This document shows, piece after piece, positions 4,001-39,516 of a stretch of DNA of 64,000 nt. The stretch comes from Phoronis australis (taxonomy: Eukaryota > Animalia > Phoronida): assembly GCA_002633005.1 (NCBI GenBank), contig NMRA01000571.1:1-64000 (forward strand), written 5' to 3'. The position numbers and the translations under genes were made by a program. Each line of letters starts with the position of its first letter. Position 1 is the stretch's first letter. The notes beneath the pieces were generated by a model. That model had not been told where the DNA came from. It made no database searches and saw nothing but the letters and a program-made list of their open reading frames with translations.

Positions 4001-6256
4001 ACCTTGAAAAAAACTGAGACGTTCACCCTGAAAAATATAATTTCTTTGAATTGTGATTGCGGACACGCAGGGAAACAGCGAGTTCGAGTTTTCGTGACTC
4101 CTCACCAAGTCGCGCGGAGTTCAATTGTGTGCGTGCTTCCGTCTGAAGTAGCTAAGCATTTTGATGGATCCACCGCGGAAAAAGCAAAGATCAATAGCCG
4201 ATTTTTTTAGGTAACTAGCGTCTTTACTCTAAGATATGTTTTGATATGATTAGAGAAAATATTAAGGCACTGCAACCCTGACATTCAGGCAAATCAACGT
4301 GCTACGTTTTTACCTCATGTGTTATGACACGTGACTACCGGGTGTGACGTACAGCCAGATAAAGACTCTCTAGGTCAGATGGCAGGCGGCAAGCGGTTCT
4401 TGGCTGAACTGTATAGGTGTTTTTCTCTCACTCGTGCAACCTGTGTTCAAATTCCAGGAACAATCGAATTTTTCTTCATCTGTCTTTTGTAACTTGAATT
4501 TGACTGGTGAAAAATAAAGTTATCTTGCGCAATAAATATGCATTACACATGGCACGTATTTATTTTAAAAACATATAAACACATTTTCCAATCCCTTGTG
4601 AGGGCTGTAATGGAAAGCACTGTGGTTTGGTTGACCGCGTACTCGAACAGTGTACAGTATCAGAGATTGCGTGCGGGCAGTATGTTCTCAGCAAGTCTTG
4701 TGGCACTCTCGCGGATGTGTTCAACAGGCCTCCTAGATATCCATTTCAGCCCCGCAAAAGGATCTCTGTTGCAGACCTCAGCACTGACCTTGTTCACTAC
4801 CCGCAATAAGAATCACTGCCGTCTTCTATACCGGAAATTTTCGCAGAAAGACCCACCCACATGAGGTTTATTTGGTGTTACAACTTCGGGATTCAAGTGT
4901 TCAGATATTGGGAAGTTTATTCGGAAAATTTCATCTGAAAGTCAATTCAGTGTCTAATGCTGCACATTACAAATGAGTCATTACTCAGCTCTGTGGAGAC
5001 TTTTTTCGCAGTCAAACCACAGATAATAGACTGATTCGCAACTCCAACATTTTTACATGGAATTTCTCACCAGAAACGCTACTTTCCGCTTCGTGAACAG
5101 ACGACTTACTTGCAGGAAGTACAATGGTTATACACACCTAGTGACTTCCAGTAGTTGGTCTCGCGATTTTGTCCGCTAACAATACACAGAGTTGGCGGTC
5201 CATGTACTATGTCTATGGTCAAATCGACTTGATCACCATTTTTCAAATCATATATCCAAGACAACAGATTTGCAACTCCGGTATTTTCTTTTCGAGTTCC
5301 TAGAGGAGGCGCCACTCTCTTGCAATGCTTATTTGTTAAGCAAATGACGTACTTGCTGTAAGTACTACGTGTGTCACACCACAAGTCTCTAGCGAATATG
5401 CGTCATCGCATCAAATAGTGTCGGTCGCGGTTTGTGTGCAAGATCACAGATTTTGTGCACTAACAGTGTAGTGAGTTGACCATTCATGGGACAATGCAGT
5501 GCAGCAACGCCGAAGGAAAACGTGTTGCCTGGAGGCGCTGTAATCGACTCTGCCACGACGAGGATAATGCCACCAAAATGTACATCGGGCGTGCCGTTGA
5601 GAAGGGTGAGCCTTTCACAACCAATGTCCCAACGGTAGGGTTCGTAGGACTAATTGCATTCCAGAGTCAGCTAGTCCAGAATCCACACGAAAGCGTTCGG
5701 TAGATTAAGGACGGAATAAAACAAGGCTTGAAATTTTCCTCTTTTTGGTCTCGATTTCCTCGTATTTGATTTCCAGTTTCTTTTTTTTTTGCTCTTTCTA
5801 TCAATATTTTGACTTTTTTCATGCAAAAAGGTTTATTTCACTTAAATTTTAAAACACAAAAATATTTCTATCACACAAACCTGTTTATTTGTGGATCGAT
5901 ACATTACCTGGAAAATTTTCCTCTTTTTTTGTCATTGGTCATTCCAAGGCCTGACGAATCCCTTCAAAATTATGATGTTTCTGGGGAAAAAACTGCTTAA
6001 GAGTGATTTTTACGTAAGCTACCTATCAGGGGGTCGCTTTTTCGAGTTCATTCTCTGAACGTGTAGGTATCCTAAAAATCCAAATGCACTGTCTTCTTCA
6101 AATACAGCAGAGTACTCCCCGGGTTACAGCAGCACAACATTGAGCTTTGAAACGTGTTATTACTGATATCATAAAATGTTTTGTATAATATTCAATTAGA
6201 AGCCCTGTTTCTTCTTCAATTCTGTTTTCAAGAATAATGAAGATAACATGAATTTT

Positions 6257-6766
6257 AAAAAATTCATGATTTCTGATTGTTATGATGATCTAGCTATCAC
6301 CATGACCTGAACACCATACTATGCTTTTGCTTGCAATGTTGTTTATAAGGTTGAATGTGACAACTGTAAGGAATTCTATATTGGACTCACAAAGACACGC
6401 CTCTGTGACAGGCTGAAAGAACATAACACCTCCGACAAAAGTAACATCTATAGGCATTGTGTTAGCAACAACCACCAAGCCAATTCAGTTAGTATTATTT
6501 GTAAAGAACCCATAAAGGAATTACTGTACATCACGGAGTCATTGGCCATTCAGGACCAGCATGCTACAGATTCTCTCAATAACATGCAAAGCTCAGTGAC
6601 CCTACAACTATGGTGATGACCTACTTACTATTCCCTGTATCTCTTGTTACTCTCATTTCAATACATCGATGGGACTCGACTGGTATTCGACACTTGCTGT
6701 GTTATTGTATGTATTATCCTGATGATGACTTATGAATAGACGAAACGTTGAAGGAACATGAATTTT
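6257..6766 (+). mobile_element. 5'-truncated Penelope-like retroelement (GIY-YIG endonuclease C-terminal part)
   Basis: 6345-6615 reads NVVYKVECDNCKEFYIGLTKTRLCDRLKEH...ESLAIQ...SLNN, a PLE GIY-YIG motif with CxxC; absent from copy B; flanked by a 12-bp direct repeat aacatgaatttt (6245-6256 and 6755-6766). Confidence 0.85.
6716..6754 (+). ncRNA. Minimal type-I hammerhead ribozyme-like motif (degenerate) at the PLE 3' end
   Basis: CTGATGA (6719-6725) - short imperfect stem II - GAAA CG TT (6742-6749); PLEs are known to carry such motifs. Confidence 0.55.
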
Positions 6767-9700
6767 TTTATTTTTTATTTGTGCGGCGGTTGTCCATTTT
6801 TTTATATTACTATGGCCAAAAATGATGTAATATGCTTTTGAAGTGCGTAGTAAATAACTAGCAGTTTTATCGGATGTCGCCAGACATGTACTGAAGAGCG
6901 TACGTGACCAAGACGTCGACGAAAAGTCGGAAACATTTGTCTACAGGTTCTGCACAGACAAACTGCCATACACTTGTTTGCAGGCATGCTTGAGAAAAAT
7001 GATCACTTGCACTGACAAGACTTCTAGAGTGGAACTAAAAGTCACTCGAAAGATTCCGTATAGTTTGGTAGCAGCCCTTCGTTAACAAAAACTTCGTTGA
7101 AAACACGACTAGACTTTTTGTTTGAAATCTTGATACAGCTTTCAAACAAAAATTTTAGTCGTGTTTTCAACGAAGTTTACACCGGTATAATAGGAGCATG
7201 CGCGTTTCAGCGTTTCTTAACACTAACTATCTTCCACAAATTTTAGATGATGAAGAGGGGTGTTGAGTGTAATCCTACCCGGGTCCTCTGGTGTGCCGGA
7301 ATCCAACCGAGAACCAGTTACCATTACAATCTCAGGAAAGTCTCCTTTTGCGAGAATATTTTTGTATAAATGAGTATGGTAATATTTCATAGTTACCCTG
7401 ATGAAACAAAGCACAATTCTTCTTTTTGATTCATTCCACAATCAAACAGCGATTGCGTAATATTCAGAAATATTAGTTCTATGCTCATACTTGTTTTTAA
7501 GTGAATCAGTCGTGGCGTTTTCTTTAAAACCGCAATTCAGTATTTACAATTTTTCTTTCCCCGATTATACTTCCACGCACAGTTCTCTAAGAAACCACTA
7601 GGTGGTGCTTGCTACAAATTTAAATATTCACGGTTTTAATGAGACGTAGCATCTTTAAGACTTCCACTTGACAATTCCTAAATGAAGGTTCAGACATGTA
7701 GTGAGTTATTAGTACATTACAACCTAGAAGTAATTTATAGAAATTATCTTAATATCTAGAAGTACTCTGAAAGTCCTTGTATGTTTCCAAATAATTTCAG
7801 TTGTGTGGAGCGTAAGATCTAGTTTCTGACTTACGTCTTGAGTCACTTTTCATGAAATAGACCTCTGTTATGTTTTATCGGTGGCCAAATGGGTGAACGA
7901 TAAGCCCGTAAATTAGGTGTGTAAATTAACTTTAATTTACGCCCTCAAAAGTTAATTTGCGCTGCAAATAATTAATTTAGGCCAGTAATTATCGTTGGCC
8001 GAATGGATGAACGTTGGTAGTGTAAATAAATAATTAATGGGTAAATTAATTATTTGCGGTTTAAGTTAATTATTTAAATTAAAATAAATTTACGCGTGTA
8101 ATGTGCGTGCGTTACGTTCACCATTTTGTCTACAATACTATTTCAACGTAGCGGTTACTCTCATGTCTTATAGCTGGAGAGTTGCCAACCCCTCTCCATC
8201 CCCCCTATGGACGCAGCCAAAATGTAGTCCGTCAACGAGTCCTTTGTTGGGCGTTTCTTTCAACCCTCCCCCCTTACGACATCTTTGACACGCCGGTATG
8301 TTATCTTGCTGCTTGGTTGCTGTCTGTAGATGAGAACCACAGGTGATCAGGATATCTCCTTCCGTCAAGACAGCCTCTTCGCCTATGAAGCAGTGGAGTT
8401 GTCGCTGGTCCCTTATGAGGTTTTGGGTGAGTTTGGCTGATGGACACTTTTATATTAATTGAATCAGTGATACCATGGTGATACGGAAATGATTGATTGT
8501 TCCCTATAGTATGTTTTAAGTAATGTGTACCCACAAACTCAAGTAAAGCTATCTGTGGGTTTTCAATGTGTTAATTGTTGAGGAATTGTCAAAGGAATCT
8601 TATTTTTATGGAAAAAAATCCAAAGTTCCATAAAATGAATATGAAACGATGATTTGGAAAGTTGTAAAGGCGTTTTGAGATTTCATTAGGAACACGTACA
8701 TAAAACGAAATTTGGCTGTGTTATTGATACCTGATTTGGTAGCAATGTAGCTTCCTTTTCTGTGACTAAGTTCTAATGGAAGATTGTTGAAAAATCACAA
8801 ATCTAATTCACTTTTCAGTGAGTTAAGCCAAAAGCTGTGTAGATATTTTGCTAAATACAGTGTTTTCAGTAGGGATCTACATAACTGCAAGGGGCAACAA
8901 AACCGTACGTTCCATCAGAAAATAAAACAACTGTTGATTTAAGCCACTTGTTGTTATAAAATGGCTGACTCAGAATAGAAATCAGTTCTAGACTTTATGA
9001 GAACTAACAGATCGTTATTGCGTCAGACCACACCCTCTAACTTACATGTATTAGACCACGCCCACTAACTTGATTCTCACGGCGAGTTTATTCTCAATCG
9101 CTTTAAATCTTGTATGACCGTAAGGAGACCTCCTGGGGATTTATTGGGTCCAATTGTAATTCAAACAAAGGGTAAGAAACAATGATGTTGTTTTGAAAGG
9201 GTTTTTATAAAAAAACTTGCCGTTTTTTGACACGTGGTTTAAATAGCATTAACTACTCAGATTTTTTATGTGAGGCGGTACAGAGATACATTGTGATTGA
9301 TTTCATGTCAAATAGAAATGATTAATGTCACTGCCGGCTTGCAGAACTTTTGTAACTTTACAATTTTGAATTGGGTATATCCAAAGTATTTCTAGGTGGA
9401 AATGACGTGGTCAGCAAGAGGAAACCCCCATCTGTTGTTCTGTCTGAGTACTATGCTGCAAAAAGACGCACATGTGAATGACGGCAATGTACAATTAATT
9501 GAATACATTACTAGATTACATTCGGTCGTTATAGTCTTCAAATTCGATAAGCAGTGATGAGCGTAATTAATCAACTGAGATAATGGAGAACACAAATGAA
9601 AATCATACGTAAACCCGCCTTTGCCCGTCAAACTAAGTTTTGTTGATCAAAGTGGATGTAAACGTACTTACAATGAATAAATAAAAATTCTCTGACGCCT

Positions 9701-9789
9701 GCTGTTCAGAAGAATTTGAGGATGTAGGATACATTTTTGACCCTTGCGTGTGGAGAAAGTTTATTAAAATCCCTGTGAACGATACAAAA

Positions 9790-10230
9790 ATATGTCAGTT
9801 TCAATACAAAGTGCTGCATAGGATCCTTTCTACAAAGGCTTGGTTATTTAAAATTAGTTATTTTGATTCTTGTACTTTCTGTGAGAACGAATGAAAGACA
9901 AATGAATACTATTTCGTTAGGCATTCTTTTTGGTATGAGATTGAGAGCCGGTTATCAGCAAAGGCACTTCGAACTCAATTTGGAAAAATGGCAATACTTT
10001 ATGGAACTCGGTTTAAAAAAGAAAACAAAGTACTCAACTGGTTTCTATTGCACGCGAAATATTATACATATATATATATATATATATATATAAAACTTTC
10101 AAAATTAAAAAGAATGCCTTTATTTCAAATGTTTTTATTAATTATTCGAATATAAATTTCACTGCTGAGAAGTATATTCTAAAGCAAAAAAATAACAAAC
10201 AAACTACAAGAATTCTGGAAACCGTGGTAG
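9790..10230 (+). mobile_element. Decayed L1/Tx1-like LINE 3' fragment (zinc-binding region downstream of RT)
   Basis: Reads CQFQYKVLHRILSTKAWLFKISYFDSCTFCENE*; more decayed paralog at ~26860-27205. Confidence 0.7.
10068..10092. repeat. (TA)n microsatellite
   Basis: Direct reading. Confidence 0.9.
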
Positions 10231-11834
10231 TCTGTCTTAGCTGACTAAGCTATTCATTTACTGGTACATGCATATATTGCTCACTTAAAATTAATCTAAG
10301 TGGGACCTGCCCTAGGTGACTGACGTGTGTATGTGTATCATACAAAATCAAGTAGCTCAACACAATCGTTAGCATTTTCATAATGTTGTATTTGAATGAC
10401 ATTGCCGCAACATTATTGATAACTATTTGTAATGTTATGTCTGAAGAATAAATGGTTAAAAGGTATAATAACAAGTGTCTCAATTTGTTTCTTACTGAAA
10501 GAAATGGCTTCAAGGACCGTGGAAGCCTCAAGACCCCAGAAATCAAAAAGTTGGGATGGTTCCTGTTTGATGGTAATTCTGTGATCGATTGCCAGGAATG
10601 CTGTTCAGGTGTTCTTTGAAGTTATTTTAGGTAAAGGATGCTCAGAAATTTAAATTTGCCCTCTGCTATCACGAATTTTCCGGGTAGGAAGTGCAGTAAG
10701 TTTTTGAGATCTTCCTTGTTTACCGCTTGATTTTCGTTGCAAATACAGGACTTTTCAGACGGGTGGAAATTGGAAAAATCTGGTTCGTCATAACATATTC
10801 TAAACTGTATTTCAGGAATCTATAGGGCAAAATTATTGGACCTGTTTTCTCCGTACTGGGACTGGGGCATTGGTGATTTTGGGTAAAAGCGTCAACATTG
10901 CATTTTTTCATTTTTATCATTTATAGCTTTCTAATGGACGTAGCAAGGCAAAATGGCCTAGCTTCTTAAATTTCTCTGTCCTAAGGAAAACCCATCGGGT
11001 GTGCTTGTTGTAAGTTATGAAGTTTTTCTGGTGTCTTGAGACAGAGACGTTACAACGATTTTTGTTGAACAAGACCAGCGATTGTACCAAGATCAACCTC
11101 TCGAACTGTGGCTTTAGTCCGCATTGAATGGCAGTTCGGTACTACTTGACCATGCTCGGCGCAAATGCCGTGACAAGACAACTTATCGAACCTTATATCA
11201 AGCCATAACAAACTGTTTGTTATCACTCAGTCCAGGAATAGTTTCTAATTCAACAACAACAACTTCAGTGCCAGATTTATAGAGGAAGATGGTCAAAACT
11301 AAAACCTTGCTTTTGACGGAGGAGGTTTTTTATCCCCTTTATACCTTGGTCGGCGTCCATAAAGCATGAGCACTCTAGAAAGTCTGAGAGTGGACAGATA
11401 CCAAATCAGCGCCTGTAGGCTGGTGATCGCAACCGAACCTCCGATGTTATAACAGTGTCAGCAATGTGTACTAGGTACCCTTTACTCCTGCATGGCTATG
11501 TGCTCTGTCTTCCAACCGAATATGATGTCGGTTCCAACTATTATTCAGAAGAGCGCAGCAATCCTTTGTTTTCAAAACTGGTCAAAGTTGTTGGATCTAT
11601 GGTTGGTATATAAGATGGCTAACTCTAAAGTAAACCGACCTTATGCTATACACTGAAATGCGTGATATTTTGCCCGGGTACAAAAATACCCCTTGTATTC
11701 ACAAAAATAACAATAATGGAGAGAAATATTAATAAATGGCCTCGAAAGTTAGAAATTTTCCTTAAAGGCGGCATTTTTTTTACTTCCTCGGCTCTGCCGA
11801 GTTAAAAGGCTAAGGCATCTGATTGCTTCTCGAT

Positions 11835-11910
11835 AACGATCGACTTCCGGCTAACTAACCAATCAGAGGTCTTAGCCGTTTGACTAAGCGCAATTGGTAA
11901 AGCCAGTCAA
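11835..11910 (+). promoter_or_regulatory. Candidate promoter of the peptide precursor gene (ETS-like acttccgg, CCAAT boxes)
   Basis: cgacttccgg...ccaatcagagg...attgg, well conserved in copy B at ~28285-28360, about 300 bp upstream of the ATG in A. Confidence 0.35.
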
Positions 11911-12179
11911 GTACAAACACACCGATGAACTCAACTTGAGCTCTTCTAAGCGCATGTGCTCCTGTATGTTCGTCGTCTTTCGATTATTCACCGTGATATC
12001 ACAACTAGTCATCTCATACGATATAGTATCACAAGTTGTCATATCATATGCTGTGATATTAAAACTTCTGATATGACTGGGGATTTCGCACNTCAGTTCC
12101 ATAGACAGGGAGAATAAAACGAAATCTCTTGCTGAAACATCAGTTGACTCACAAGACTCGCAACTGAACAGTACTGGAA

Positions 12180-12641
12180 ATGTTCTCCTCGGCAGCCTTA
12201 CATGTCCAACCAAAGTTCTTGATTCTCATCATGTTGCTCTGTGGCGTTGCATCTGGTCTTTGGCAAGAAGAACAGGACAGACCACTGACTATGCATAACG
12301 ACTTCCTCGTTTCGCCAATCCCTGATGAGGTGCAATCCAGACAATCCTCAAAGAAATTATGGGACGCTTTTGAAGATCTGCTTGAAGCTAAATACGGGAG
12401 AGGTGGAATTGTCGAGGTTGTCAACAAAAGAAAGCGGTTTGAAGATCTACGGGACGCAAAAAGAAGTCGAATAAGATTGAATGACAATGTAGGCAAAACG
12501 ACACATTTTGAAAGTCTACAAGACGTCAAACGAAAACTACCGAATCCAATTGTCGGCAAAAGGAGACATCAGGAAGAGGCAAACGACAGGCCAAAGACAT
12601 GGAACACTGCCGTCGGTAAAAGGTATATTTTGAAGGTCTAG
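12180..12641 (+). CDS. Secreted neuropeptide-like precursor, copy A (153 aa, 3'-truncated by frameshift)
   Basis: Signal peptide (KFLILIMLLCGVASG|LW), 21-23-aa repeats FEDLxDA-KR...N-x-x-V-G-K-R, dibasic and Gly-Lys-Arg amidation sites; paralog at 30436. Confidence 0.75.
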   Translation: MFSSAALHVQPKFLILIMLLCGVASGLWQEEQDRPLTMHNDFLVSPIPDEVQSRQSSKKLWDAFEDLLEAKYGRGGIVEVVNKRKRFEDLRDAKRSRIRLNDNVGKTTHFESLQDVKRKLPNPIVGKRRHQEEANDRPKTWNTAVGKRYILKV

Positions 12642-13718
12642 AAGATGCAACAAAAAAACAGACGTAAGGTATCAAAGCCTAAGAAGACACGTTGAAGATC
12701 TTCAAGATGGTGGCGAAAGACGTCGAAATAGAATGGAATTAGGGTGGTGTTACAGAGTACTTCTGACGACACGGATTTTTACGGCAAAAATATTGATAAC
12801 GGTAAAACAGATTGGGACTCTTGAAAACTACTTTAACTCGTTCTGACATTTCGCAGACTGGCTTAAATTGGGTTATACAGGTTTTGATGATTTTATTCAA
12901 AACGGGTTCTGCAAGATAAAAGCTTACTCAGATGTCAGCATTCCCGTGCTGCCATTATGGCGTTTTGTCCATGCCCATTTTGCAGAGTCTTAGTTAGTTT
13001 TATCTATTGACGTCATAATAAATGACAATATTCGCAATCCTCCTGTTGTTTTACTCTGCAACATAGCTCGTGGCGTACCCCGGGCAAAATAGATTACGAT
13101 AAAAAGTTTTATTAGTGTCACCAAACGAAACCTGTGGTTCCTCACACCTGTACCTTGTTTAAAATTAACGTGGTTCGGCAGACCAAGTTTAGCTGCCAAT
13201 AATTGGTTTACTGCATGTAGACGGGTTTATGAGATATCAGAGAAAAGGCTATTACACAACAGTGTGTGAAAATTAAATCGTATCTTGCTTTATCGCCATT
13301 TTAATGCAATGTCAAGACAAATTCACTAAAAATAAATATTTTTTGAAATCTTAACTTTCCCAGTTAAAGGCGCGTCGTCGTTTTTACTGTAGAAAAAGGA
13401 AAGTTTGAATTATTCTTGAATGGGTAGATTTTTAAAGTTATTACCTTTGGCCAGAGCTGTGAGCTATAAAAGTTAGTCTACTCTGTTGTGTTTTGTGGTT
13501 TTATTACAAATCACCAGTTCTCGTCTTTGTCTGCCAGCCATTTACCAGTTCTGCTATCCACTGAGTTGGATGAAGCGACGCGTCAGAATTTTTTGCTGAG
13601 GCTGATCTTGTATCGCCAGTAATGTCACTTTAAGTGTTATTCAAGCTTTTGATTAGAAAACTTTGTAAATGGTTTAAATTTTTGTTACAAACTTCTGAAG
13701 ATTGACGATGAGCATTGT

Positions 13719-13906
13719 CATGCGCGCACCTCCCCCCATTTGGCGAAGTAGGCAAAAAGGTCCGCCTCAGAGAAACAAAAACTCCAAAAAGTATAAAACG
13801 AGACAAAAGTACACTAAAAAGGCAGTGATTTGGCAATTGTTTTATTAAACGTTCCATATTCTCAAAAATTCAAGCCCTCCTATATTTTAGGTTGTGTGCA
13901 CGCATG
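13719..13906. mobile_element. Non-autonomous TIR element (hAT5-like MITE)
   Basis: Ends catgcgcgcacc / gtgcacgcatg, flanks attgt/actgt; same family at 32085-32268 and inverted at 40529-40786. Confidence 0.7.
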
Positions 13907-16900
13907 ACTGTATTGCGTCAAAAATAAGTTTTCTAGACTGTTGACTAAAACGAGTTTTTAAAGTTCTTCTTGACTATATTTTATGATGAACAGTGGTCGC
14001 CAATCTCAAACAGGTATTTTCACAAAACCCATCGCCAAAAGTCGCCAAAATGTTGCAATCATGTAACGATTCTTAAAATATCACCTTGATGACCTGCATT
14101 TTACTCGTAAGATAGGAAAACGAGTCGATGCGACTCCAACACATGTCCCAGAGTCGTGACACGTTCTTCGTTCGTCCCAAGCGTCGACGATGAATTTAGT
14201 TGCTTGTTCTCGTTACAAGATGTTGGGACTGGCGAGGCTTGTTTCTGCGGTCAATTCAGGTGCACATCCAGAATTGGTTCAAATGGTCTTTTTCGGTCTT
14301 GCTGGAAACCCATGGATAAAGCTCTGGAGCCGTGACTGCAGTTTACATTGACTTAAAGGCAGTTACACGTACATCATGTGTTTCCTAACAGAAATGTATT
14401 CTGAAATGTTTAGAAATGCTGATGAATCGATTGTAAGCTACTCCGAGGCTTCTAAATGGTGATTCTGCATTCTAAAAAACCTGAAACCTGCGCACGCACC
14501 GAGCTATATTTGGATGGTTTGATAGNNNNNNNNNNNNNNNNNNNNNNNNNNNCCCCCCCCCCCCCCCCAATTTGGCAAGGGGGGCAAAAAGGTAGACTGT
14601 ACGTCTATTGTGTTTGTGTACTACCAAAGATTAAAAATTATTCTTGGATATTATCATACATTGAGTTCTGTAAATTAAAAATGTGATGTGTCGTAAGAGC
14701 GCCATTTAGGTTAAAAACGTTTTAAAACTCGCTTATGAAGCTCAACGTTAACTTGAGTGGACAGAGGGTCTTCAAAAGGATTGTGCTGGGTTTGGTTTGA
14801 GTTTAGACGACAGAAGTTCTCAACAAAGATTTCAACGTGACCCGAGGACCTTCGAATTTTAGTCTAATTTCGGCATTTTCCAGACGATCCTTCGCAAAAC
14901 AAGTTTTTGTCGCATCAGCCGTTGTTCCTCGTTCTTGAACATGATGCTTGCTCTGGACTGCGCTTCATTTCGTTGCAAGTTTTGATCTTGGAGTTTGTCT
15001 CTACCTCTAGTAAATGTGACATTTTCTAAAATGAAACCTTGAAGTGCGAGGACGAGCTTCATGATATTTATCATTGAAACAGTTCTCACCTTACCAGTAT
15101 CATTAAAGCGAAATGCAGCCGGCCTTTGCACATTAAAGTAAAAAATTAAACAATATGTTTTTATTTCAAAGAGTATTTGACAAGTGTTATTTAATCTTGA
15201 ACTTAAGAAAGGCAGGGAGCACAAAATACGACAAAAACATAATCAGTTTGGGTAACGCGAGAACACTTTCAAATTCACCAAGCGCCCATCACTTCATTTA
15301 TGAGATGCCCACTTCTCGTTTATTCACTCCGTTTTCTTAACAACACTTCTCAATTTAATATCATGTCACAAGCAGGACGAGACATATCTGTGAGCCTACT
15401 CGGGGGAGTAGATTACGAATACAAACAATAACTTCATTAAAATAAAAAAAATGTTGCGCTTTATTTCCTCAACCTACTCACTGCTCATGTTAGATTCATG
15501 GAGAGCAAATTCAATGGTACACAGACAAATCAATTAACTAATTAACTAATTTGAATAAATGACATTTCGTACGTTCATGTACGTATGTTCATATGCATGA
15601 GCTTCAACGTCATATTAATTTGAAATAGTTTAAATTACTAAGATACTCGTTAATATTCATTAATCAACTGAGAACACAAGGCGGGTTTCGTCAGTCGAAA
15701 GATATTATTAGAGCATTTTGTAACTTTCAGGTCTGCTCGTGTGCGCCTTAATTTAACATTGTTTTTTCAGATTTTTTAAAAGTGGGTTGTCGCCGAAGCC
15801 TCTTTACTAACGGCGACAGCCGAGCGATTATTCATAATGCATGCATCAGCTGTTAATTACTACGGTAGCCATTTTACGTGGTATTGCACAGATAAAAATA
15901 AAAGTTAAATTAAATAATTCATACTGAATTCGGTTAAATTTGAACATATTTAGATTTGTACTGAATGACCATTATTTGGACTTCGTTTTGTCTGACTAGC
16001 TTACGTTGAAATCGCTTTTTTACCAAACTGAAGCGGAAAGAGTACATAATTTTAAGCTCGTCATTGTCAGCTGTACAGAAACTTTAACTATCTGAACAAT
16101 ACAAATTAAGAACGATTGCATGTAAATACCTTGAAGAGAATAAAATTAGCAAAATCACCGAAAATTTAACACAGCACTAGAGATTGGGAAGTGAAGCACA
16201 TTCTTAATTTTATTTTAATTTCTAAGGATTTTTCCGATCACTCTGCATATTCGGATTAAAACCATCATACACAATTGCCGGAATGTGAGTGAATTAGGAT
16301 CAATAACATATTATTGAGTCACACAAAACCACCAATACTGGAATAGTGTAAAAGACGAAGAATTAAGGTACAAAATTTACTTTGAATGAAATTTAAAAAT
16401 CTCCATGTTATCTTACATTTGCCGGCTAATAAGTCATTTTCAACACAGAATATTAGGAGCAACTTAGCTATATTCACCGCTGTATCAAAGTTATGAGCGG
16501 ATATACTTGAAGAATGAGGTCTCTTTTGCCCGCTGCTTCTGCCTTTAAATGCCCAGCCCCAAAATAACAAAAATCTTTTCTTTCTCAAACACGATTAGCA
16601 TTTCCCGCCATGATGAATGACAATTTGTTGCATTATAACCTGCTAAGTGGCACTATTCGTTTGTAAAATAATGAGTCGACCACGGTGCCAACAATTAGAT
16701 ATCATTTTCAGTGTTCCATCAGTGACGGTGGGAATTGGGGGACTGTCCGCGGCTTCCCTCCTCCAGGCTATATTTAGTCCACGCAACTTGGGTTAAGGAA
16801 GATCTGGAAATTTGCTGTTGCTTGAACCATGCTCGGCGTACATATGATTGGCAAACCGACTTCATGAGCCAGGTCTGCAGCAACAATGTAGGCCTGATTA

Positions 16901-17912
16901 TTACTTCCATTCTCAGTAAAGGACAAGTTGAGACCGCACCTGCGTTCTGTAGACCCAAGGAACTCACAACGACGCAGCGCCACTATAATCTTCGCCAGAT
17001 GTCGCCATGAACTTACGAGGGAAGCACGTGCTCACACTAGCTTAGTACACATTTTGAAATCTTGTAGACTTTGAAATTTTACTTTTCGCAACTATCCCAT
17101 TATTTGGATCACGTTAACAAATGTTTTAGGAAATTTTAGCGAAACGGAAAGGTACATTCATAGCAAAACCATGGTATTAATACTATGCCAATATTTTGTT
17201 AGGTATAAATGTTCGAGATAAAATCTCAAATTATGCATAAACGTTGATACAGTTTTTCAAATTCCTTTTCGTTCATGTAATTTTTTGATTTTTTTACAAA
17301 AATCGTAAAATGTTTGTAACCCCCTCCTGCAAAATTGGCAACTTCTGTAAACACTGTATTTTTGTCAATTTTACGATAAATTTCGGAATACTTTCTACCC
17401 AAAAAGGAGCATTTTTAAGAAGCGTCTGAACGTGCATCAGCCACGTCTGGGTGTCCTGCACAGATATTACTCAACAAAGTCAAGAAAAATCGTCAGAAAT
17501 GTAAGCAAACTTTAACTTAGAAATAGATTTAGCTCAATGCAAACTCTGACGAAAATACTGAAAATCGCAGATATGCACCCGGCCTCAAGCCTGTAGCTGG
17601 TGTAAAACAAAACTTGACTGCCGTGACATGCAGGCTGCAAAAAATTCATTCACAAAAAATTTGCGTGCACGTATACGTGTCACGCGATCTGCGATCCTCT
17701 TAGATAAAAGATGACAAATGACATCAAAACAAGCAGAGCAGTCTGTGTAAACCCGCTTCTTTAAAGAATCCTCAGTGGGGCGCATAGTTCGCCCTCGTTC
17801 AAATACTTTTGCATATCACGAATCTCGATATAATAACCACTGCTACAAACACGAACGTTGTATAACCTATATATATAAAGTTATCTCACTAGTGAGATAA
17901 CAATTTGGCGGA

Positions 17913-17978
17913 AACCGAGGCCGGATTCGAACCCGGGCATCAAGAATTTGCCGACTTAACCACTACACCACTCAGTGG
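17913..17978 (-). pseudogene. tRNA-derived sequence (SINE head or tRNA pseudogene)
   Basis: Minus strand has A box tggtgtagtgg, B box ggttcgaatcc and acceptor-like pairing actgag/ctcggt, but no proper anticodon arm. Confidence 0.6.
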
Positions 17979-18518
17979 CTGACGTCATCGAACTTGAAAA
18001 TAGAATACTTAAATGAGCACGCGCAACAATCGCATGTTCAGCAAAGGGCATTGCACCGACATTTATACGCTATGAAAAATAAGACGCAAAATTTCCATAA
18101 AACGATATTTTAATTCGGTGAAAATTCTCGTGTTCTCGCACTTGTAAATCACCGATCTCCAATTTGAATGCGGGTATCCTGTCGTCGGGATCCTTTGACT
18201 TGAGCATTATAGTCAGTTACTAGTGGTAACCTGCTTTAGCAGACGATACTTTACAGGTCGAAGCTTACCGTGATAAAATGTGTAATAAGCTATAATAGTT
18301 GCTAAACCTTAATTAATAGATTCACTTTATTTCTATTTTGTTCAAATTTTCCATTGGTTTTGAGTATAAGCATTATTTGACAAAATAGCTCGGCTTTTCT
18401 TAAAAGGTCATGACTTCCGATCCCGGGCCTCTGACAGAGAAAGTAGTTACAAAGCCGAGGCGAGTCGAGAAAGGTAGATCGATTCATTGCAATGTTTCTC
18501 GTTCAGTATGTGGTATAA

Positions 18519-18682
18519 TTAGATTATTACATGTTCTCAGTTATTAGCCCCCTTATCTAGAGTCCTCGTGGATTTTGGGGAATTATCACCCTCGGGTCTA
18601 ACGCCCCTCGGGCAATAATGCTCCAAAATCCACTCGGGCTCTAGATAACGGGGGATAACGACTTCGCCATGTAATAATCTAA
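18519..18682. mobile_element. Foldback MITE
   Basis: Long inverted arms ttagattattacatg...ttatctagag...gtggattttgg / ccaaaatccac...ctctagataa...catgtaataatctaa. Confidence 0.75.
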
Positions 18683-18819
18683 AAAAGTCTCAAAGTTTTA
18701 TTTACATCTGATCAGAGACCTACAAGACACGATGTTTCGAAATTAGACACATTTGGACATTTATCCAGGATCTCACATAACCGTTTAAGGTTAAAACAGT
18801 ATTTTCTGTAGGGGTTTAC

Positions 18820-19116
18820 CAGGGGCGGATCCAGAATATTGAGTTAGGGGGGCCAGGGCACAGGAATTACCAGAATTTTGCCTCAGGCGCCCGCCCAGCT
18901 TAAAATGTAGGGATGTAGGGGTCTCGAATTTTTTGGTTTATTACTAGAAAAAGGGGGTTGTTCAAGCCTATGCATTGTGCCTTCGCCCCCCGAGCCCAAC
19001 TGGGTGCGCGCATATGCTAGCCAGAAATTTGCAACCAGAACTGCCAAATGGAATCTGGGAGAATTTTAGGGGGGAGCCATGGCCCCCTTGCCCCTACCCA
19101 TCTAAATCCGCCATTG
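18820..19116. mobile_element. hAT5-like MITE with 5-bp TSD
   Basis: caggggcggat ... atccgccattg flanked by tttac/tttac. Confidence 0.7.
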
Positions 19117-19209
19117 TTTACTTTGTCTTAAGTAATCTTGCTTCCGATATTTGGCCCTTCCGGTATGCTGTAGAATTCGGCTTACTATCACACGGTTTCA
19201 ATACGAGAA

Positions 19210-19390
19210 GTGCACTGATACGCCGTAAAATGTAACAATTTTGTAAAATGTAACAACTGTTACATTTTACGTCATTGTTACATTTTACGTTACTAGGCCT
19301 CTCCTAAAATGCAACAAGTTGTTACATTTGATGTAATTGTTACAATTTATGTCGAATGCACATGCGAGAAATGTACCATTGTTACATATT
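19210..19390. repeat. Cluster of direct and inverted aaaatgtaacaa / ttgttacatttt motifs (MITE with subterminal repeats)
   Basis: About eight copies of the motif in both orientations. Confidence 0.55.
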
Positions 19391-19747
19391 TCATGAGTTC
19401 CATGGTATTTGTCACACGGATATATATTTTGCCACTCTGAAAGGACACGGTCATTTTGCTCCGCGTCTAGGTCGATAGTTTAAAGGGGCAACAGTCCAAA
19501 AAACCTGTCTTGGGGCCTTGAGGATTTCACAAAACATGACATTTCTCTTTCTGTTATCTTTTAAGATAAAAAAACAATTTGGTATTTGGTCAATGATCGT
19601 TAGTCCAAATTAGGAAACAGGTTCCTACGTCCGAAGCACATATAAATAAAGGCAGAGACTGGACATTCTAGTATTAATGAACGTGAAGCCACGTATCTCA
19701 TGAGGCGCCATTTTTGTGTTGCAGCTTGCTGTCAACAACACACGTGG

Positions 19748-20064
19748 CAGTGGCGGATCTAAGATACCATAAGGGGGGGCCAACATGTTGCCTCGGAGAA
19801 TTGGGCGCAGCGCGACTGTGTGTGCACGGGCGGCTTCAAAGTTGCGGGGGAATGTGTACCTTGTATGCGAAACATTTATGGTGGACTAAAAAAAATTAAA
19901 AAGGGAACGCGATTCTGCCACGTTTGAGCCCCCATTCCGCTACCTGTCATGCTATCTGAACTCAATGATTCCTCACCCTTCAAGCTCTTGCTGTTTCATT
20001 TTGCTTGCGGCAGCCAAGGGGGGGAGGGAGCGGGCCCCCTGCCCCCCCCCTAAATCCGCCTATG
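19748..20064. mobile_element. hAT5-like MITE with 5-bp TSD
   Basis: cagtggcggatcta ... taaatccgcctatg flanked by cgtgg/cgtgg; truncated relative at 39153. Confidence 0.75.
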
Positions 20065-21081
20065 CGTGGTTGTAGACAGATGAAGATCTTTTGTATATTT
20101 AACGTTTTGCTATATCTCATAAAAAGCGCATATTCAACATCGCTGACATCGACGTGGGCCGTTTTTGTTCCTTACCACCCACTTTCAATGAAACCTAGTT
20201 CAAATCACTGAGTTAAATCACTGAATACTGGGTCTCGTTCCACATAAAATTGTGCGTGTTTTGCATCCGTTACTAGCCATTCTAATGACCCAGTGACCGC
20301 AGCCGTAGCCGACTAGTCGCTAGATCTCGAAAAATGACTACATTCAAAATTCAACTTAAAGCAATTTTTGAACTTACATCGTGGAGCGAGCCTCAGTTCT
20401 TTGAAAGGGCTTATTATCACACGGTTTCAATACGAGAAGTGTACATGTTTCTCTGTAAAATATATAATGTAAGAAATTGGATGTGATAAGTTTTTGAACG
20501 CCTGCGGTGTGTTTCACGCCAAGTCTACAAGAAAACGTTGTAATGTTTGTCTTTCGAGTGGCATTTAGTCTGCTTTTGAGCAGGCTATGGAGTTGTTTCT
20601 TTTGACTTCGACTTGTAGACAGATTTTCTGACATCTAACCTTTATTAGCGTAATTTCGTGAAACGTGCTATCTCATCCGTAGACTGATCTCTTAGTTAAA
20701 CGCCAAAAGACTATAAACTATTCGAAAAACAGCTCCGAGATCGAATTTGTAGATTTAGGCATTGAACACATCTCAAAATACGCGGCAAAAATAAGTATGT
20801 GAATATTTGAAAAAGCGTGTGTTTAGGGCACTGCACGGCCCACCTCAGCCACTGCTTTGATTTTTTCACGCTTCCTTTTGTTAGGATGACTGAAGTCTAG
20901 TAGAAGTAGAGCGACTGTTTTACTATGAAATGTATTGTACAATGTTTTATTTTACATATACTCATATATTTGTGTTCATGAGGTCATTTACACTCGTCAT
21001 CTGAAGAAGGACATTGATGTAGACAATACGAAAGTGTGTTGAACAAACTATCTAAGGCTAAGAACAACTTACTTTTCAATG

Positions 21082-21083
<2 letters not shown>

Positions 21084-21113
<30 letters not shown>
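21084..21113. repeat. (CA)n microsatellite
   Basis: Direct reading. Confidence 0.95.
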
Positions 21114-21123
<10 letters not shown>

Positions 21124-23269
21124 GTAATTTTAAAATTATCAAATTGTTAGTGTGCAAAATGGTCAACTCTTTTTAAAGAGTTGACCATTCCTGTACTATA
21201 TTTTATGGACTAATACAGTGCAGTAAAGCTGAAGACAAACATACTGCGACATGAGAAGTATCTATTGAACTTAGAGGCGATTTAATCGATACAGCCACGG
21301 GGCTAATCCCACCAAAAGGTTCATCCGACGTGCCACTGAGAAGCCATTTTCACGACCAGTTTCCCAACGATATGGTGTTTTAGGCAATTTCAGCTGTCCA
21401 AGAATCCATTCGAAAGCACTCAGTAGATTTCAAAGGCGTTATTAAACATACTCGGAATTTTCCTCTTTGAAGAGGATTACCCCTTTTCCCTCTTTTTGGT
21501 TTTAATTTTCTCTTATTTGATTTCCAGTTTCCTATTTTCTTTTCCCTTTTTTAACATTTTTTGATATTATTCATGGAAACACTTTTATTTCACTTAAATT
21601 GTACAACACAAAAAAATTTCTTTCACACAAGCCTATTTGTTTATGTCTTGGTCTTTCCAAGCCCTGATTGATCCCTTCAACACTATGATGTTCCTGGAAA
21701 AAACTTACGAAAGGGTGATTTTTACGGAACCTACTTACCTATCAGCGGGTCACTTTTTTGAGTTCTTTCTGTGAACGTGTAGGTATCCTAAGAATCCAAC
21801 TGCATACCTTCAAATACAGTAAAGTACTTCTCGGGGTTACAGCAGCACAATATGGGAGCTTTGGAACGTGTTATATTAGTAGCACGAAATGTTATTTACT
21901 ATTCAATTAGAGGCTCTATATCTTCTACACTGATGTTTCAAAGAATCATGAGGAAAACAAGAATTCTAAGGTGCTTTCTGGTTCTTTCGATGAAATAGTC
22001 CAGAATACTATTTTCCTTTTGTAGTGCGTAGTATATATCAACTAGTTGTTTTTATCGGGAAGCGCTACCTGTTGAGAATTCGACCAGCCAATCAGAATCG
22101 CCGGTGTAAAAAATTCTCGAGGAAAATCAAATGATACCTATACGTGCTGGTTACCACCTAGCAGCACTCAGCGAACCAGCAAGGTCATTCTCAAACAATG
22201 ACTAAGATGCAGGTTAAATTAGAAAACTGGTTTTTCAATAAAACGGCAGGTCAGCAGGCGCTTTTTGATGTTCTTGCCAAATTTCACGTGTGATAAGACA
22301 AAGTTTTTGTCCGTTGAATGACCTTTCTAAGAGAAAATAGTAACGAACTAACGTCGACACGTCATATAAACACTGTAAATGCCTGGGGCCTATTCACATG
22401 TAAGTCAAGAATTTGTCTTTTTTGTTGCGAGGTTTGATGAGTGTGCGCTAAAGTACAAACTTTTGCAAGTTGGGACATTGCATAAGTTGACGCTTCATCG
22501 ACAAAGACTGCCGTGTAGCCTACATTGGTAAATAGCCCAGAAAAAAATCCTAAATCACCGATAATTCCTCAAAGATTCGTATACACTGGCTCCAAGACAG
22601 TTCATTTGTGAACCAAGAACTGTCCCTCACCGGTCAACTGGTGCATTAAATTTTTGTTTGTGTTCAGAACATTGTTTACGCTGCAAAATTACGTTCTGTG
22701 TCCGTATGAGGCACACATGAATCAGAATCAATGACCATCTTCATAAACCATTTTGATAAACGGGTTCCCAAATCTAAGATAAGCCCGCCTTGGTCACGAT
22801 CGGACGTATCACCTTTAATAAAACGGATCCCTGGGTATGTTTTGAGTCAGTTTTTGAAAATGAAGCACCTCCATCAGTGTATCAACGGTAGCTACCACTG
22901 GTAAAAACATTATTTTTGTTAAACTGGCTGTGCGCACCCTGTTGCATATTAGTTTAGCCGGATGCAATTTACCTTTTTTGCAGTACTAAGTCTCTCAAAA
23001 GAAAATCATGCCGAGGAAGGAGATATAGCACAGTCAGATAGACGGTAAGTTAAAGTGACTGGAATGATTCTGAGAATGATCTCGAATGCAGTACACCCTG
23101 CGACCAAACAGAAATGTCCCCTATTACATATTTACGACATGGGCAGCTACGTCAACTATACGTCCATTAATGACGAGACCAAATTATATGTCATCAAAAA
23201 CAGAGACGGTCGCCATCTTACAAACTTCTACCAAAACGTCATAAGGACAAGGGCCAAAAGTGTGCTTGC

Positions 23270-23825
23270 AGAAACGGAAGTTGTTGTAGAGCATGGCTGC
23301 AGACTCTTAGTTTGAAGTATACTCAAAAGAAGTTGATTGTTTGCTCTATATTGCCTGCGTATTGTTCCCAGACAGTTCCTATAGTCACTCCAAGAAACTT
23401 ATTTTATAGCTCTATCACAACTAGACGGACATCACACTTTCTAAAACTACACGCCACCTGCAAATATCATCTTAACTCTCTGACCAAACAAGAAATCTTT
23501 CTACGCACCTAGAATAGTAGCAAGATCATTCAATTCTCGGAATGTACGCATTCAAAGAATTAGAGAAGTTCTCGGGTCGTGGATTAAGTGTATAGGGTTT
23601 TGCAGACAAAGAGGTATAGCATTGAGGGGCCACGGCGATGATGACTCCTGCGGAAATGCAAATAAAGGTAATTTAAAGGCTTTGGTAGACTTCAGAATAG
23701 AAGTAAGTGACGTATTACTTACAGAGCACCCGGAAACACGCCCTAAGAATGCGTGCTACACAAGCAAGTCTACTTAAAACGACATCCTTAAATGCATAAA
23801 AGCTTTTATCCAGAAAGAATCAGAA
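23270..23825 (+). mobile_element. Decayed hAT transposase (ZnF_TTF/DUF4371, ZMYM1/PRKRIR-like)
   Basis: Reads RGIALRGHGDDD...NKGNLKALVDFRIE..D..L.EH....PKNACYTSKST*NDILKCI, with stops and frameshifts. Confidence 0.8.
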
Positions 23826-25425
23826 AGTGACGAGTCAACATTTTGGGCCCTATCATACGGGACTCGGTGCGACAAGGTCACAATTGCAGTCGATCTGCAT
23901 CCAGTATTTTTATTTTGAAAAGTAGTGAAATCACTAAGATCAGTATACGAGGTGCTACTCAAAAGTTCCCGGTGGTAAGGTGAGCATAGCTAAAAATTAA
24001 TTATTTGCGGAGGCATAAATCAATTTTAAAAGCGTATATTCGTGTTTCGTACTGTTGGGAAACATATAGTTGACAAAATTTCTCCCTCTTACATAAATGG
24101 ACTAAGAGCCCAATCACCCTCATCCCCCCACCCGGACGGACATAACCAAATTGTATGACGTCAACAAGTCCTGTGTAGAGCATTTTCTTCGATCACTGTG
24201 CCCCCTCCCTCTCCCTTACGACATTTTAGGTTAGCCGGTGTGTTACCTGGCTGATTTGCCGCTGTCCTCAGTTGAGAACCCCAAGTGATCTATATAACTT
24301 CTTCGGTCAATAAAGCTTCTCCGCCTTATGAAGTAGTGCAGTTATCATGAATATTGGACTGGTCCCTTGGGAGATTTTGGATGAGTTACGCATATGAATA
24401 CTTTTATATTATTGGAATCGGTGATACGGGAATATTTGATTATTCCTTATGTTTTTAACTAATGTGTACCCACAAACTCAAGAATAGCTATCTAAGGGTT
24501 TTCAATGGGTTAATTGATAATGGGTTATCAAAGATATGTATGATTTTCTTTAAAAAAAATCTTAAGTTGCATTAAATGAATTCGAGATGATAATTTACTA
24601 AATAGAAAATTTTGAAGCCGCTTTAATTTGGAACACATATATAAAAATCCAATTCTATTGGATTTCTCCTTTCAGTGAGTGAAACCAAGAGCTGTGTATT
24701 GATTTGAGCCATTCGCTGTTACAAAATGGCTGACTCAGATTGCAAATGGTTTCTAGGCTTTAAGAGAGCTGACAGATCGTTATTGCGTCATACCACGCCC
24801 TCTAAATTGTCAGACCAATCCCACTGACTTAAACGCTACGGCGAGTTTATTCACGTTTGCTAATGATGTACATGTATGACTTTAAAGAGATTTCCTGGAG
24901 TTTTAGTGGCTTCAATTTTAGTTCGAATAAAGGCTAAGAAAGCAATGGCGTTATTTTGGACGTTTTTTCATAAAAATGTTGATGTTTTGACACTATTACG
25001 TGGTTTAAAGGGGTTTACTATTTAGATTTTTTGATATGAGGTGGTACAGAGATACGGTGGGTGTTGATTTCATGTCAAATAAAAATGATTAATTTCCCTG
25101 CCGGCTTGCAAATCTCTTACAACGTTCCAATTTTAAATTGGGTGTATCCAAAGTATTTCTAGGAGGGCACATTTGCGGACGGAAATGACGTCAGCAAGAG
25201 AAAACCTCCATCTGTTGTTCTGTCTGACTACTCTGTTGTAAAAAATGCACATGTGAATGACCGCAGTGTATACTTAAATGAAAACATTAGTAGTATACAT
25301 TCGGTCGTAATTGTGAAGAGCGTAACTAATAAACTAAAATAATGGTGAACGCAAGCTAGAATCAAATGATGAGTTTAAAGTGACAACAGACCCGCTATTG
25401 TACGAAATATTAAGTTTTGTTGATC

Positions 25426-26725
25426 TTTTTTATTTATTTATTTATTATGTGATATTTAAAATGAGGGTGGCCTCTTCAGTGATAGCACTGCTTTCCAAGA
25501 GGGCCCTCAACAAGAAAAACAGTAATATAATACAATGAAGTAATAAAACAACAATGAAATATACGTAACAAATATACAATTAAAACAGTTAAGGTTGAGA
25601 ATTAAGACAATAACTAAATGACAAATAATGGTAAAAAATTAACTAAGACAGATGAAATAAATTAAGAGATGACTCTAGACAATGAGAGTATTTACGACAA
25701 TGAAAAAATGACATGATTAAGATAGGCAGGGTATAAAAGGTTAAGTAAATTACAGCCACTTTTTAACATTAACTTTAAAGGTAGTAATTGAGTTGGACCG
25801 TTTAATTTCTGGGCTAAAAGAATTCCATATTATAGCAGCTGCATAGATAAAAGATCTCTTGCCAGTCTCGGTTTTAATTTTTTTAGAAGAAACATTGCCA
25901 GCAACAGAAGAACGTGTAGAATAAACAGCCTGACTGCTATTGAATTTACTGCTGAGATATGCTGGAGCCAAGCCATTGATACATCTGTATATACAACAGG
26001 CAGAGAGATATTTATTTCTTTGTCTTACTTTCATAAATCCCAGCTTGGAGTACAAGTCGTCAACCCTAGTGTCCCTAATTTTAGTACCCAGGATAGCCCT
26101 GGCGGCTCTATTTTGGATTACTTGGACTTTGTTTACAAGTGTGTCACTAGTGTGCCCCCAAACCGGTAAACAATAATCAATATGAGGCTGAATAATACAA
26201 TGGTAAAGGGTCTTAAGGGTACGGACATTAAGAAATTTGCCTAGACGTTTAAGTACACCGATTTTCTTTGATAATTTCTTTGTGATATGATCTATGTGCA
26301 TATTAAATTTAAGATTGGGATCTAAAATAAGGCCCAAGTACTTAAACTTGTCAACATTCTCGATGGGAGAACCGTTGATAGAAAGGGATAGTTTTTGTTG
26401 CTTTAATTTCTGGTGGGTTCCAAACAGCATCGACTTGGTTTTACTAACGTTAAGAGTGAGTTTATTTTGAATCAGCCAGTCATGGATAATGGCTAGCTCA
26501 TTGTTGAGAGAAGTTTCGAGTTCATTAACCGATCCAGCTGTGGACATAATTGCAGTGTCATCAGCGTATAAAACTGGGACACTGTTGTGGAGGACCGTAG
26601 GGAGGTCGTTAACAAAAATAGTGAATAATAGAGGGCCCAAAATGGAACCCTGAGGTACCCCCGTGATTACGGTTGAGTAGTCAGAAAGTATACCACCGTA
26701 TTTGGTGGCCTTTTTACGGTCGTAT
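25426..26725 (-). mobile_element. 5'-truncated L2/CR1-group LINE with intact partial RT ORF
   Basis: GVPQGSILGPLLF, YADDT, LNVSKTK and FKYLG motifs in an uninterrupted ORF to 25750; 3' stem-loop at 25463-25508; (TAAA)n tail; the empty site is visible in copy A at ~9645. Confidence 0.92.
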
Positions 26726-28414: not shown

Positions 28415-28555
28415 CATAGATTAATTCTTATTATCACAACCAAGCAAAAAACGCTGTACCTTGGACACTAGCCTCCGAAGATGGCTGCTGTGAGTAGCCT
28501 AAACTGTCAAGGTACAGCGTATTTGCTTGGTTGTGCTAATAAGAATAAATCTATG
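28415..28555. mobile_element. MITE with ~50-bp TIRs starting CATAGA
   Basis: catagattaattcttattatcacaaccaagcaaa...gctgtaccttg / caaggtacagcg...gcttggttgtgctaataagaataaatctatg; absent from copy A. Confidence 0.85.
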
Positions 28556-29143
28556 TGTTCTCTACCAACCTTATGAAATTATTTAGTGGCATGTGTTTCT
28601 GTTTATTCGTCGTCCTTCGATTATTTACCGTGACATCCCAACTAATCATTTCACACGAGATAGTATCACAAGTTGTCACATCACATGTTTCAATACTTGT
28701 GATAAGACTAGGGGTGTTGGTCACTTTGTGTCATTAATATGTCAATAAAATGAACGTTGTAAGAAAAAACACAGTTACGAGGTCATTATTAAATCGCAGG
28801 TCAAAAGGTTGAATGCTCTGAGGGAGAAACTGACGTCAAAACGAAATACGACCTTGGCAAAGCTTCATTGAATCGGCAAGTTCATTGATTTAAAACAATG
28901 AGCTACAAAAGGATAGATCTTCATGGTCAGCAACACATCAATTTCCGCCTCCTTTTGGCTTCACTTTGTCATTTCACGCGATCCTTGTACCTCATCCATT
29001 CCTTAGTCCCTGATCCGTTGCTCAACCATGACATGTGCAAGTATGATTGCAGCATGCATAGCATCGATGGGTTGTACAATTAATTGTAAGTTCTCGAGAA
29101 AATGTGATATTTACCCGAGCACACCAGCTACATGCAGCAAAGG

Positions 29144-39295: not shown

Positions 39296-39516
39296 GGCAT
39301 TTCTCACCACGGAAAAATATTACCCCAACCAGACGTTTCGCCTGTTGCTTCTACACTCTGCAGACCTGTACTATCCCAATATCAAAATGAGAACACGACT
39401 ACCGTCACAAAGATCGCAGATAAGACGGTCGCAGACACTTGGTTGGGTAAGTCGTGTATTTCACAAGAGCGAAGTGTCGCAACGTGAATTCGATCATTGA
39501 CCGTAATCACTATAAA

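Follow-up and report, generated by a model that had tools for sequence, protein, structure and literature searches.

A tandem pair of transcribed genes in Phoronis australis encodes, in the reading that we on balance favor, secreted precursors of prohormone type that are predicted to be cut to short N-x-x-V/I-amides and to yield likely receptor ligands. As judged from their sequences, the genes belong to a real family of amidated-peptide precursors that appears to be catalogued but unnamed and to be decaying at its 3′ ends, and that is probably restricted to phoronids and fast-changing. What is new here is the genomic pair, the motif held across species, the failed test for allatostatin A (AstA) and a reversed pattern of conservation; the precursor type itself is ordinary. 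The reach of the finding is narrow, as it concerns a single small phylum, a precursor of familiar kind and a function that is predicted only.

We propose that the signal peptide would lead each precursor into the secretory route of a secretory cell, where prohormone convertases would cleave both at G-K-R and at basic residues further upstream, a carboxypeptidase would trim the products, and PAM would turn the Gly into an amide, giving short N-x-x-V/I-amides. These convertase, carboxypeptidase and PAM amidation steps form an established pathway. Asn at −4 and the V/I-amide would make up the receptor-contacting core, with the other residues varying freely or under diversifying selection; the receptor would be a GPCR, and the family would turn over by duplication and decay.

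The gene pair and its predicted processing

Both open reading frames (ORFs) that an earlier note on this DNA had reported are present in the window, by which we mean the whole 64,000-nt stretch that was analyzed. Copy 1 (12180–12641, plus strand) encodes 153 aa, its coding region being free of introns, and copy 2 (30436–30864, plus strand), which is covered by RNA reads and contigs, encodes 142 aa. The two proteins are identical at 84 of 135 ungapped codons (62%), and the copies are paralogues from one tandem duplication. Collinear blastn blocks with 75–90% identity across blocks place the first duplicated unit at 5532–16179 and the second at 21274–34459, both on the plus strand, and most non-coding blocks are 75–82% identical between the units. 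The second unit has two insertions upstream of copy 2, one of LINE type and one of 1.6 kb.

The signal peptide claimed in the earlier note is also predicted by our hydropathy scan, which found an N-terminal hydrophobic segment in both copies. Each protein has a single hydrophobic stretch, at residues 11–25 (Kyte-Doolittle 11-mer scores of 3.2 and 2.85), and after residue 30 no further hydrophobic segment was found in either (11-mer scores ≤0.68). In copy 1 the predicted signal peptide comprises residues 1–26 (12180–12257, plus strand; the cleavage point is inferred), and 19 of the 26 residues of this region are common to the two copies. Promoter-like elements, recognized by the TATA and initiator consensus, precede both ORFs. 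The inferred core promoter of copy 1 (12113–12145, plus strand) consists of the TATA-like heptamer AATAAAA and the initiator-like hexamer TCAGTT, which lie 27 nt apart, and the corresponding elements of copy 2 (30369–30401, plus strand) have the same spacing.

Downstream of the signal and pro-region, the repeated Gly-basic modules that had been described were found again: N-x-x-[VI]-G-[KR] occurs at three in-frame sites in each ORF, each of the form N-x-x-V/I-G-K, and three such sites were not reached once when the residues of either ORF were shuffled 200,000 times. A six-frame scan of the window returned 11 sites, seven of which lie inside the two loci. The DNA repeats with a period of 69 nt, or 23 codons, in either copy, and with one of 63 nt as well in copy 1. 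Four modules are recognizable per copy, of which three are in frame and carry an amide signal, and the in-frame amidation and cleavage site is GKR in five cases out of six and GK in the remaining one.

In copy 1, module 1 (12393–12437, plus strand; residues 72–81, the module ending V-V-N-K-R-K-R) has Asn in place of the amide-donor Gly and no Asn at −4, and its product is predicted to be non-amidated; the claim that all peptides keep Asn at −4 and V/I before the Gly is thus correct only with this module omitted. Module 2 (12465–12497, plus strand) carries SRIRLNDNV followed by G-K and then Thr, so that the dibasic site is lost here, and the GKR said to follow every peptide is found in most modules but not in this one. 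Modules 3 (KLPNPIV and GKR; 12534–12563) and 4 (TWNTAV and GKR; 12597–12623) follow on the plus strand, and the module register is lost directly 3′ of the latter. In copy 2, on the same strand, module 1 carries YSGNSLNSII and GKR (30649–30687), module 2 carries SQRIFNTSI and GKR (30721–30756), and module 3, which has 18 residues and no internal dibasic site, ends in LRNYNV and GKR (30790–30819). Copy 2 retains three intact modules; in copy 1 an amide signal and a dibasic site are gone.

A basic site had been expected before each peptide, yet LRNYNV has none directly before it, and TWNTAV and YSGNSLNSII are preceded by a single Lys only, for which reason the N-termini of the predicted peptides are uncertain. 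Similarly, the proposed FEDLxDA spacer is exact in two of eight aligned spacers, the others being looser variants. The predicted products have 4–10 residues, or 17–22 where a module has no internal dibasic site; calculated [M+H]+ masses of the amidated forms include 1064.585, 693.393, 1066.553 and 2085.074 for copy 2, and 651.419, 690.357 and 1085.617 for copy 1.

Near the 3′ end both ORFs, as assembled, depart from the module frame, and out-of-frame spacers lie beyond. In the alignment, copy 1 lacks 1 nt relative to copy 2 near 12624, and copy 2 lacks 2 nt relative to copy 1 near 30845. Three-frame translation and alignment identified spacer and module remains out of frame at 12624–12714 in copy 1 (plus strand), and in copy 2 an out-of-frame RWNNNV with G-K and further spacer remains at 30851–30975 (plus strand). 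RWNNNV itself (30851–30868), which had been listed among the products of the two copies, is therefore in another frame and is not encoded by the copy 2 ORF.

A catalogued homologue and the named peptide families

Using six short words from the window, we found a homologue of both copies in the supplement of Thiel et al. (2021; PMC8557429), namely comp91267 of Phoronis ijimai, a single transcript entry labeled “AllatostatinA_related” and given three times in the supplement lists that were searched. In a gap-free hand count over its first 116 residues, comp91267 agreed with copy 1 at 67 of 116 positions (~58%) and with copy 2 at 57 of 116 (~49%). The signal peptide, pro-region and H-F-E-D-L-x-D spacers are common to all three, and all six modules of comp91267 have N-x-x-V/I-G-K (NTVV, NFNI, NTNI, NTNV, NFIV, and NINV). 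Whereas the P. ijimai precursor has six modules and no stop within the entry, the window copies are shorter, with 3–4 modules. After its last module, the P. ijimai precursor has G-K and another acidic spacer, an arrangement that the window copies match in their out-of-frame 3′ remains.

The other places in the searched supplement text that contained spacer words were receptors or TRH. The same word search listed no homologue for the other three phoronids, the six brachiopods or the thirteen nemerteans of the Thiel set, and comp91267 goes undiscussed in those main-text passages that deal with allatostatin A and with P. ijimai. Five of the six exact window peptide endings had no match in the searched supplement text, and the sixth, NDNVGK, occurred once each in two octopus Wamide precursors, which we took as chance. 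Neither the 15 places with NVGKR nor the first 15 of 26 places with NIGKR in that supplement revealed a repeated N-x-x-V/I precursor besides the one from P. ijimai.

Protein searches gave no matches among 14 candidates of 84–268 aa and none at E 0.001 among 1.84 billion representatives, the two-copy alignment matched none of 959 longer candidates, and Pfam had no match for either precursor ORF. Since the homologue turned up in a paper supplement, these blank searches do not imply novelty. Atlas feature matches for both copies (0.87–0.92, with recognition below the tool threshold) were led by peptide-hormone precursors and uncharacterized clusters, with no single family among them. In the mainly open-access literature on phoronid neuropeptides, where the Thiel survey and its preprint were the pertinent items among the titles listed, we found no family name for these precursors. 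The family had been called undescribed in the earlier note, which is accurate insofar as no named family matches, but not insofar as the P. ijimai homologue was already catalogued as “AllatostatinA_related” (PMC8557429). The suggested check against neuropeptide collections, carried out here on part of one such source, therefore yielded a listed homologue, though under a label that does not fit and with no family name.

The C-terminal motif, which the earlier note did not recognize, fits no named family that we checked, and it is present in all six P. ijimai modules too. The motif tests covered 13 modules, seven from the window and six from P. ijimai; Asn occupies −4 in every one of them, and six have an aromatic residue (F or W) at −5. 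The AstA motif is given as Y/F-X-F-G-L/I-amide (PMC12509031), with FGL-amide as the ending of allatostatin A in the passage cited from PMC8514136, and the Gly at −2 that this motif includes is present in 0/13 modules. Like AstA and buccalin, the gene pair encodes multi-copy amidated peptides between basic sites, with an aliphatic amide; unlike them, it lacks the Gly at −2 and the Leu/Phe amide, its Asn at −4 does not vary, its acidic spacers are long and conserved, and its peptides diverge fast.

Phoronid AstA peptides are of two main types, ending in G-L or G-F and nearly identical across four species, and one further AstA precursor with looser endings is listed for P. ijimai (PMC8557429). 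In its last step, that survey annotated sequences by hand on the basis of structure, motif and similarity (PMC8557429). Because “AllatostatinA_related” also labels dissimilar repeat proteins under “Others” (PMC8557429), the label appears, from the sequences placed under it, to be a loose bin. We do not class the gene pair and comp91267 as AstA.

It is nonetheless conceivable, if decidedly improbable, that the pair is a divergent allatostatin-A/buccalin paralogue which still signals via the allatostatin-A receptor. Consistent with this are the placement of the P. ijimai homologue under the Allatostatin A heading, the occurrence of G-V or G-I among brachiopod AstA endings, and the three other AstA precursors in P. 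ijimai, where the family expands (all in the parts of PMC8557429 consulted), along with the aromatic −5 in 6/13 modules and the aliphatic residue at −1. Against this stand the absence of Gly at −2, the looseness of the label, and a signal and pro-region that by eye show no likeness to those of phoronid AstA precursors.

The remaining families checked include other short amides. Fulicin, a pentapeptide amide whose second residue is Asn and whose last is Val, formally fits the N-x-x-V/I-amide motif. The fulicin/EFLGamide/F[V/L/I]amide group resembles the gene pair in comprising short V/I-amides of lophotrochozoans, but its signature is E-[L/F]-[L/F/V] (PMC8398477), and Glu at −3 or Phe at −2 was found in 0/13 modules. 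The phoronid-specific LKFL and other lineage-restricted precursors set an example of multi-copy precursors that are confined to phoronids and have acidic spacers (PMC8557429); the LKFL precursors differ in being unrelated in sequence and in having copies that are identical within and between species (PMC8557429).

For the favored reading of secreted N-x-x-V/I-amide precursors, these comparisons would correct a catalogue label and turn a single P. ijimai transcript into a multi-gene family whose motif is held across species. They would also supply defined short peptides for mass spectrometry and receptor screens in a phylum for which we found few peptide data in the literature.

Transcription and divergence between the copies

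We used four RNA data sets chosen by species label, of which X1–X3 are raw reads and X4 consists of contigs, its RNA status being a guess. For X1–X3, 18–19% of the reads were searched (11–13 million records per run), and reads were mapped at 90% likeness to 11600–31500 and at 80% likeness to 30230–31500. The copy 1 bin 12264–12927 had depths of 1.34, 1.11, and 0.88 in X1, X2, and X3, with every first mate on the minus strand. For copy 2 (30230–31500) there were 8, 21, and 10 reads in the same runs, all 39 in one direction, including 20 first mates that all pointed one way (p ~1e-6 if independent). Nine of these 39 reads were <90% alike, and as 8 of the 10 listed differences tied to them carry copy 1 letters, they probably stem from a copy 1 allele. 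X4 contained three contigs over most of copy 2, at a depth of 27–32, and none on copy 1. Given the usual orientation of stranded libraries, on which the direction of the reads is read here, both copies are weakly transcribed and on the coding strand only, with expression in the raw-read runs at about one read per million or less. Elsewhere in 11600–31500, reads fell on both strands of dispersed repeats, and several bins outside repeats had none.

Copy 2 reads start in bin 30402–30444, right after the initiator-like hexamer, and there were none in 30230–30401. We considered a spliced 5′ exon (AG at ~12104/30360), but copy 2 had no listed joint or loose end and its reads begin near 30402, and an intron-less gene was preferred; both genes probably lack introns. 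In the frame-break regions the raw-read depth was 2–3 per run, near the listing threshold, and the X4 contigs have a hole at 30833–30922; the breaks may be genuine or may be assembly errors.

Copy 2 transcripts also carry allelic differences, at 30509 (Cys25 to Ser in X2 reads) and at 30572 (Arg46 to Lys in one X4 contig). A further X4 contig (30928–31037, depth 30) loops from 31008–31037 back to 30928 via a 5-nt microhomology, which is either a 110-nt tandem repeat in the allele of sample X4 or a library or assembly loop.

Divergence between the copies was measured by two-sequence counting estimates on few codons, with the peptide boundaries of the earlier note. The 109 non-peptide codons gave a dN of 0.165 and a dS of 0.449, i.e., dN/dS ~0.37 (bootstrap 0.21–0.64; Fisher p 2e-4 vs. 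synonymous sites), and the 26 peptide codons a dN of 0.736 and a dS of 0.443, i.e., dN/dS 1.66 (interval 0.89–3.1). The proportion of non-synonymous changes (pN) was 0.47 in the peptides vs. 0.15 in the scaffold (Fisher p 4e-7; block permutation p 9e-4), and the amino-acid excess in peptides over scaffold persisted without module 1 (p 8e-4). The excess of dN over dS within the peptides did not reach significance (one-sided p 0.07; dN/dS 1.27 and p 0.31 when module 1 was dropped). The signal, pro-region and acidic spacers are under significant purifying selection between the copies, the spacers alone having a dN/dS of 0.39 (p 0.002), and the first 405 coding bases contain no indels vs. ~6 expected from the gap density of the flanks (P ~0.002).

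With the spacers being the conserved part, it might be asked whether the acidic spacer (H-F-E-D-L-x-D type) is itself active, either by itself or as the first half of an 18–21-residue amide, as in pedal peptides; an inner basic site that is missing or single in several modules, in both copies and in P. ijimai, would be in keeping with this. We consider it highly improbable. Spacer conservation is not above that of the signal and pro-region, and the spacers do not have the pedal peptide/orcokinin motif (L/F-D-x-L/I-G type, in non-amidated repeats), nor do they resemble the phoronid pedal peptides, L/F-D-x-L/I/F-G/S (PMC8557429). Moreover, acidic peptides from the Aplysia buccalin precursor were inactive on the four receptors tested in the part of PMC12509031 consulted.

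The 3′ ends raise another alternative, that both copies are transcribed pseudogenes or are becoming so, the working gene lying elsewhere in the genome or having been lost. The independent 3′ frame breaks in both copies and the five runs of gaps over the final 124 bases of the alignment would fit this, as would the loss of Gly and of a dibasic site in copy 1, the low read counts and the 1.6-kb insertion immediately upstream of copy 2. However, within the first 135 codons there are no stops or indels and purifying selection has acted, three complete modules precede each stop, the promoter-like elements are equally spaced, and both copies are transcribed on the coding strand, and we regard decay to pseudogenes as improbable.

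In typical proneuropeptides the peptides are conserved and the spacers are not (PMC3890597), a pattern which the gene pair reverses, its peptides holding only N at −4 and V/I at −1. This reversal speaks against the favored reading, especially as true phoronid AstA peptides are nearly the same across four species, and so do the departure of both ORFs from the module frame with fewer modules than in P. ijimai, the low expression, and the lack of listed homologues in the other three phoronids in the supplement text searched. At the first peptide, a comparison by hand showed that copy 2 differs from P. ijimai in 9 of 10 residues with N at −4, V/I at −1 and GKR kept, and that copy 1 is nearer to P. 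ijimai there, yet has lost the core. The state of copy 2 agrees with a core that is small and fixed, the other residues being free to vary or diversifying, and the reversed conservation suggests either that the pharmacophore is very short or that the role is an outward-facing one.

The latter role would involve the same processing, with the peptides released outward for reproduction, species recognition or defence (including antimicrobial action) rather than acting as internal neurohormones, and we hold it to be possible but unlikely. Genes for venom, skin-defence and reproductive peptides commonly combine conserved acidic pro-pieces, variable mature peptides and duplication. The gene pair shows a comparable combination in its conserved signal and spacers, its variable peptides, and its tandem duplication and decay, and the rewritten first peptide of copy 2 and the uneven expression in X4 (copy 2 at a depth of ~30, copy 1 absent) point the same way. 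Relaxed constraint, however, fits equally well where dN>dS is not significant; the shortest predicted products, with a net charge of 0 to +1 and 4–10 residues, are small for membrane-active peptides; and no sequence likeness to defence, venom or reproductive precursors was found, the peptides of the gene pair being much shorter. A more specific version, which we think doubtful, is that these are Phoronis-specific amidated pheromone or gamete/species-recognition peptides that diversify around a fixed N-x-x-V/I-amide core and were mis-binned with allatostatin A. If true, this would be the first such peptide signal that we could trace in Phoronida, on a prohormone scaffold that evolves like a venom or reproductive gene.

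Surrounding sequence

Several features of the duplicated units and their neighborhood were observed alongside the gene pair. One duplication block (14593–16179 and 32877–34459) is 90% identical between the units vs. 75–82% in other non-coding blocks; it has no Pfam match, its first copy is nearly without RNA, and it reflects either gene conversion or a conserved non-coding element. The ~1.6 kb upstream of copy 2 and absent from copy 1 (28714–30353) has RNA on both strands and is probably a mobile-element insertion close to the copy 2 promoter. A LINE-type reverse-transcriptase ORF (Pfam RVT_1; 25750–26790, minus strand) is found in the second unit only, with related RNA on both strands.

In 1–40000, 73 ORFs, opposite-strand and neighboring ones included, have at least 75 aa; Pfam, run on 60 of them, gave one match above the curated cut-off, a GIY-YIG endonuclease fragment (6311–6616, plus strand; E 7e-7), which is possibly a relic of a Penelope-like element. 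Rfam gave no matches. At 45668–63937 on the minus strand lies a multi-exon ELAPOR/KIAA1324-like gene that runs past the window end. It has 12 exon-sized matches to an Owenia protein (~51% identity), with Owenia giving the top summed score. In a tree of 21 rows, built from sequences other than phoronid or brachiopod homologues, it belongs to a supported group that also contains Owenia, P0001 and the molluscs, and it lies outside the mollusc clade, with no settled order relative to Owenia and P0001. This places the host among lophotrochozoans other than the sampled molluscs, and the P. ijimai homologue in turn points to a phoronid.

A 460-bp unit is present twice in tandem at 39512–40438 with 98% identity, as a result of either recent duplication or an assembly artefact. 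Short palindromic MITE-like elements lie at 7089–7178, 18519–18682, 19224–19289 and 28415–28555, and those within the RNA-mapped stretch attract reads from related copies elsewhere. A degenerate CAT-triplet array with an assembly gap, at 472–1005, is the origin of spurious Met/Asp-rich ORFs.
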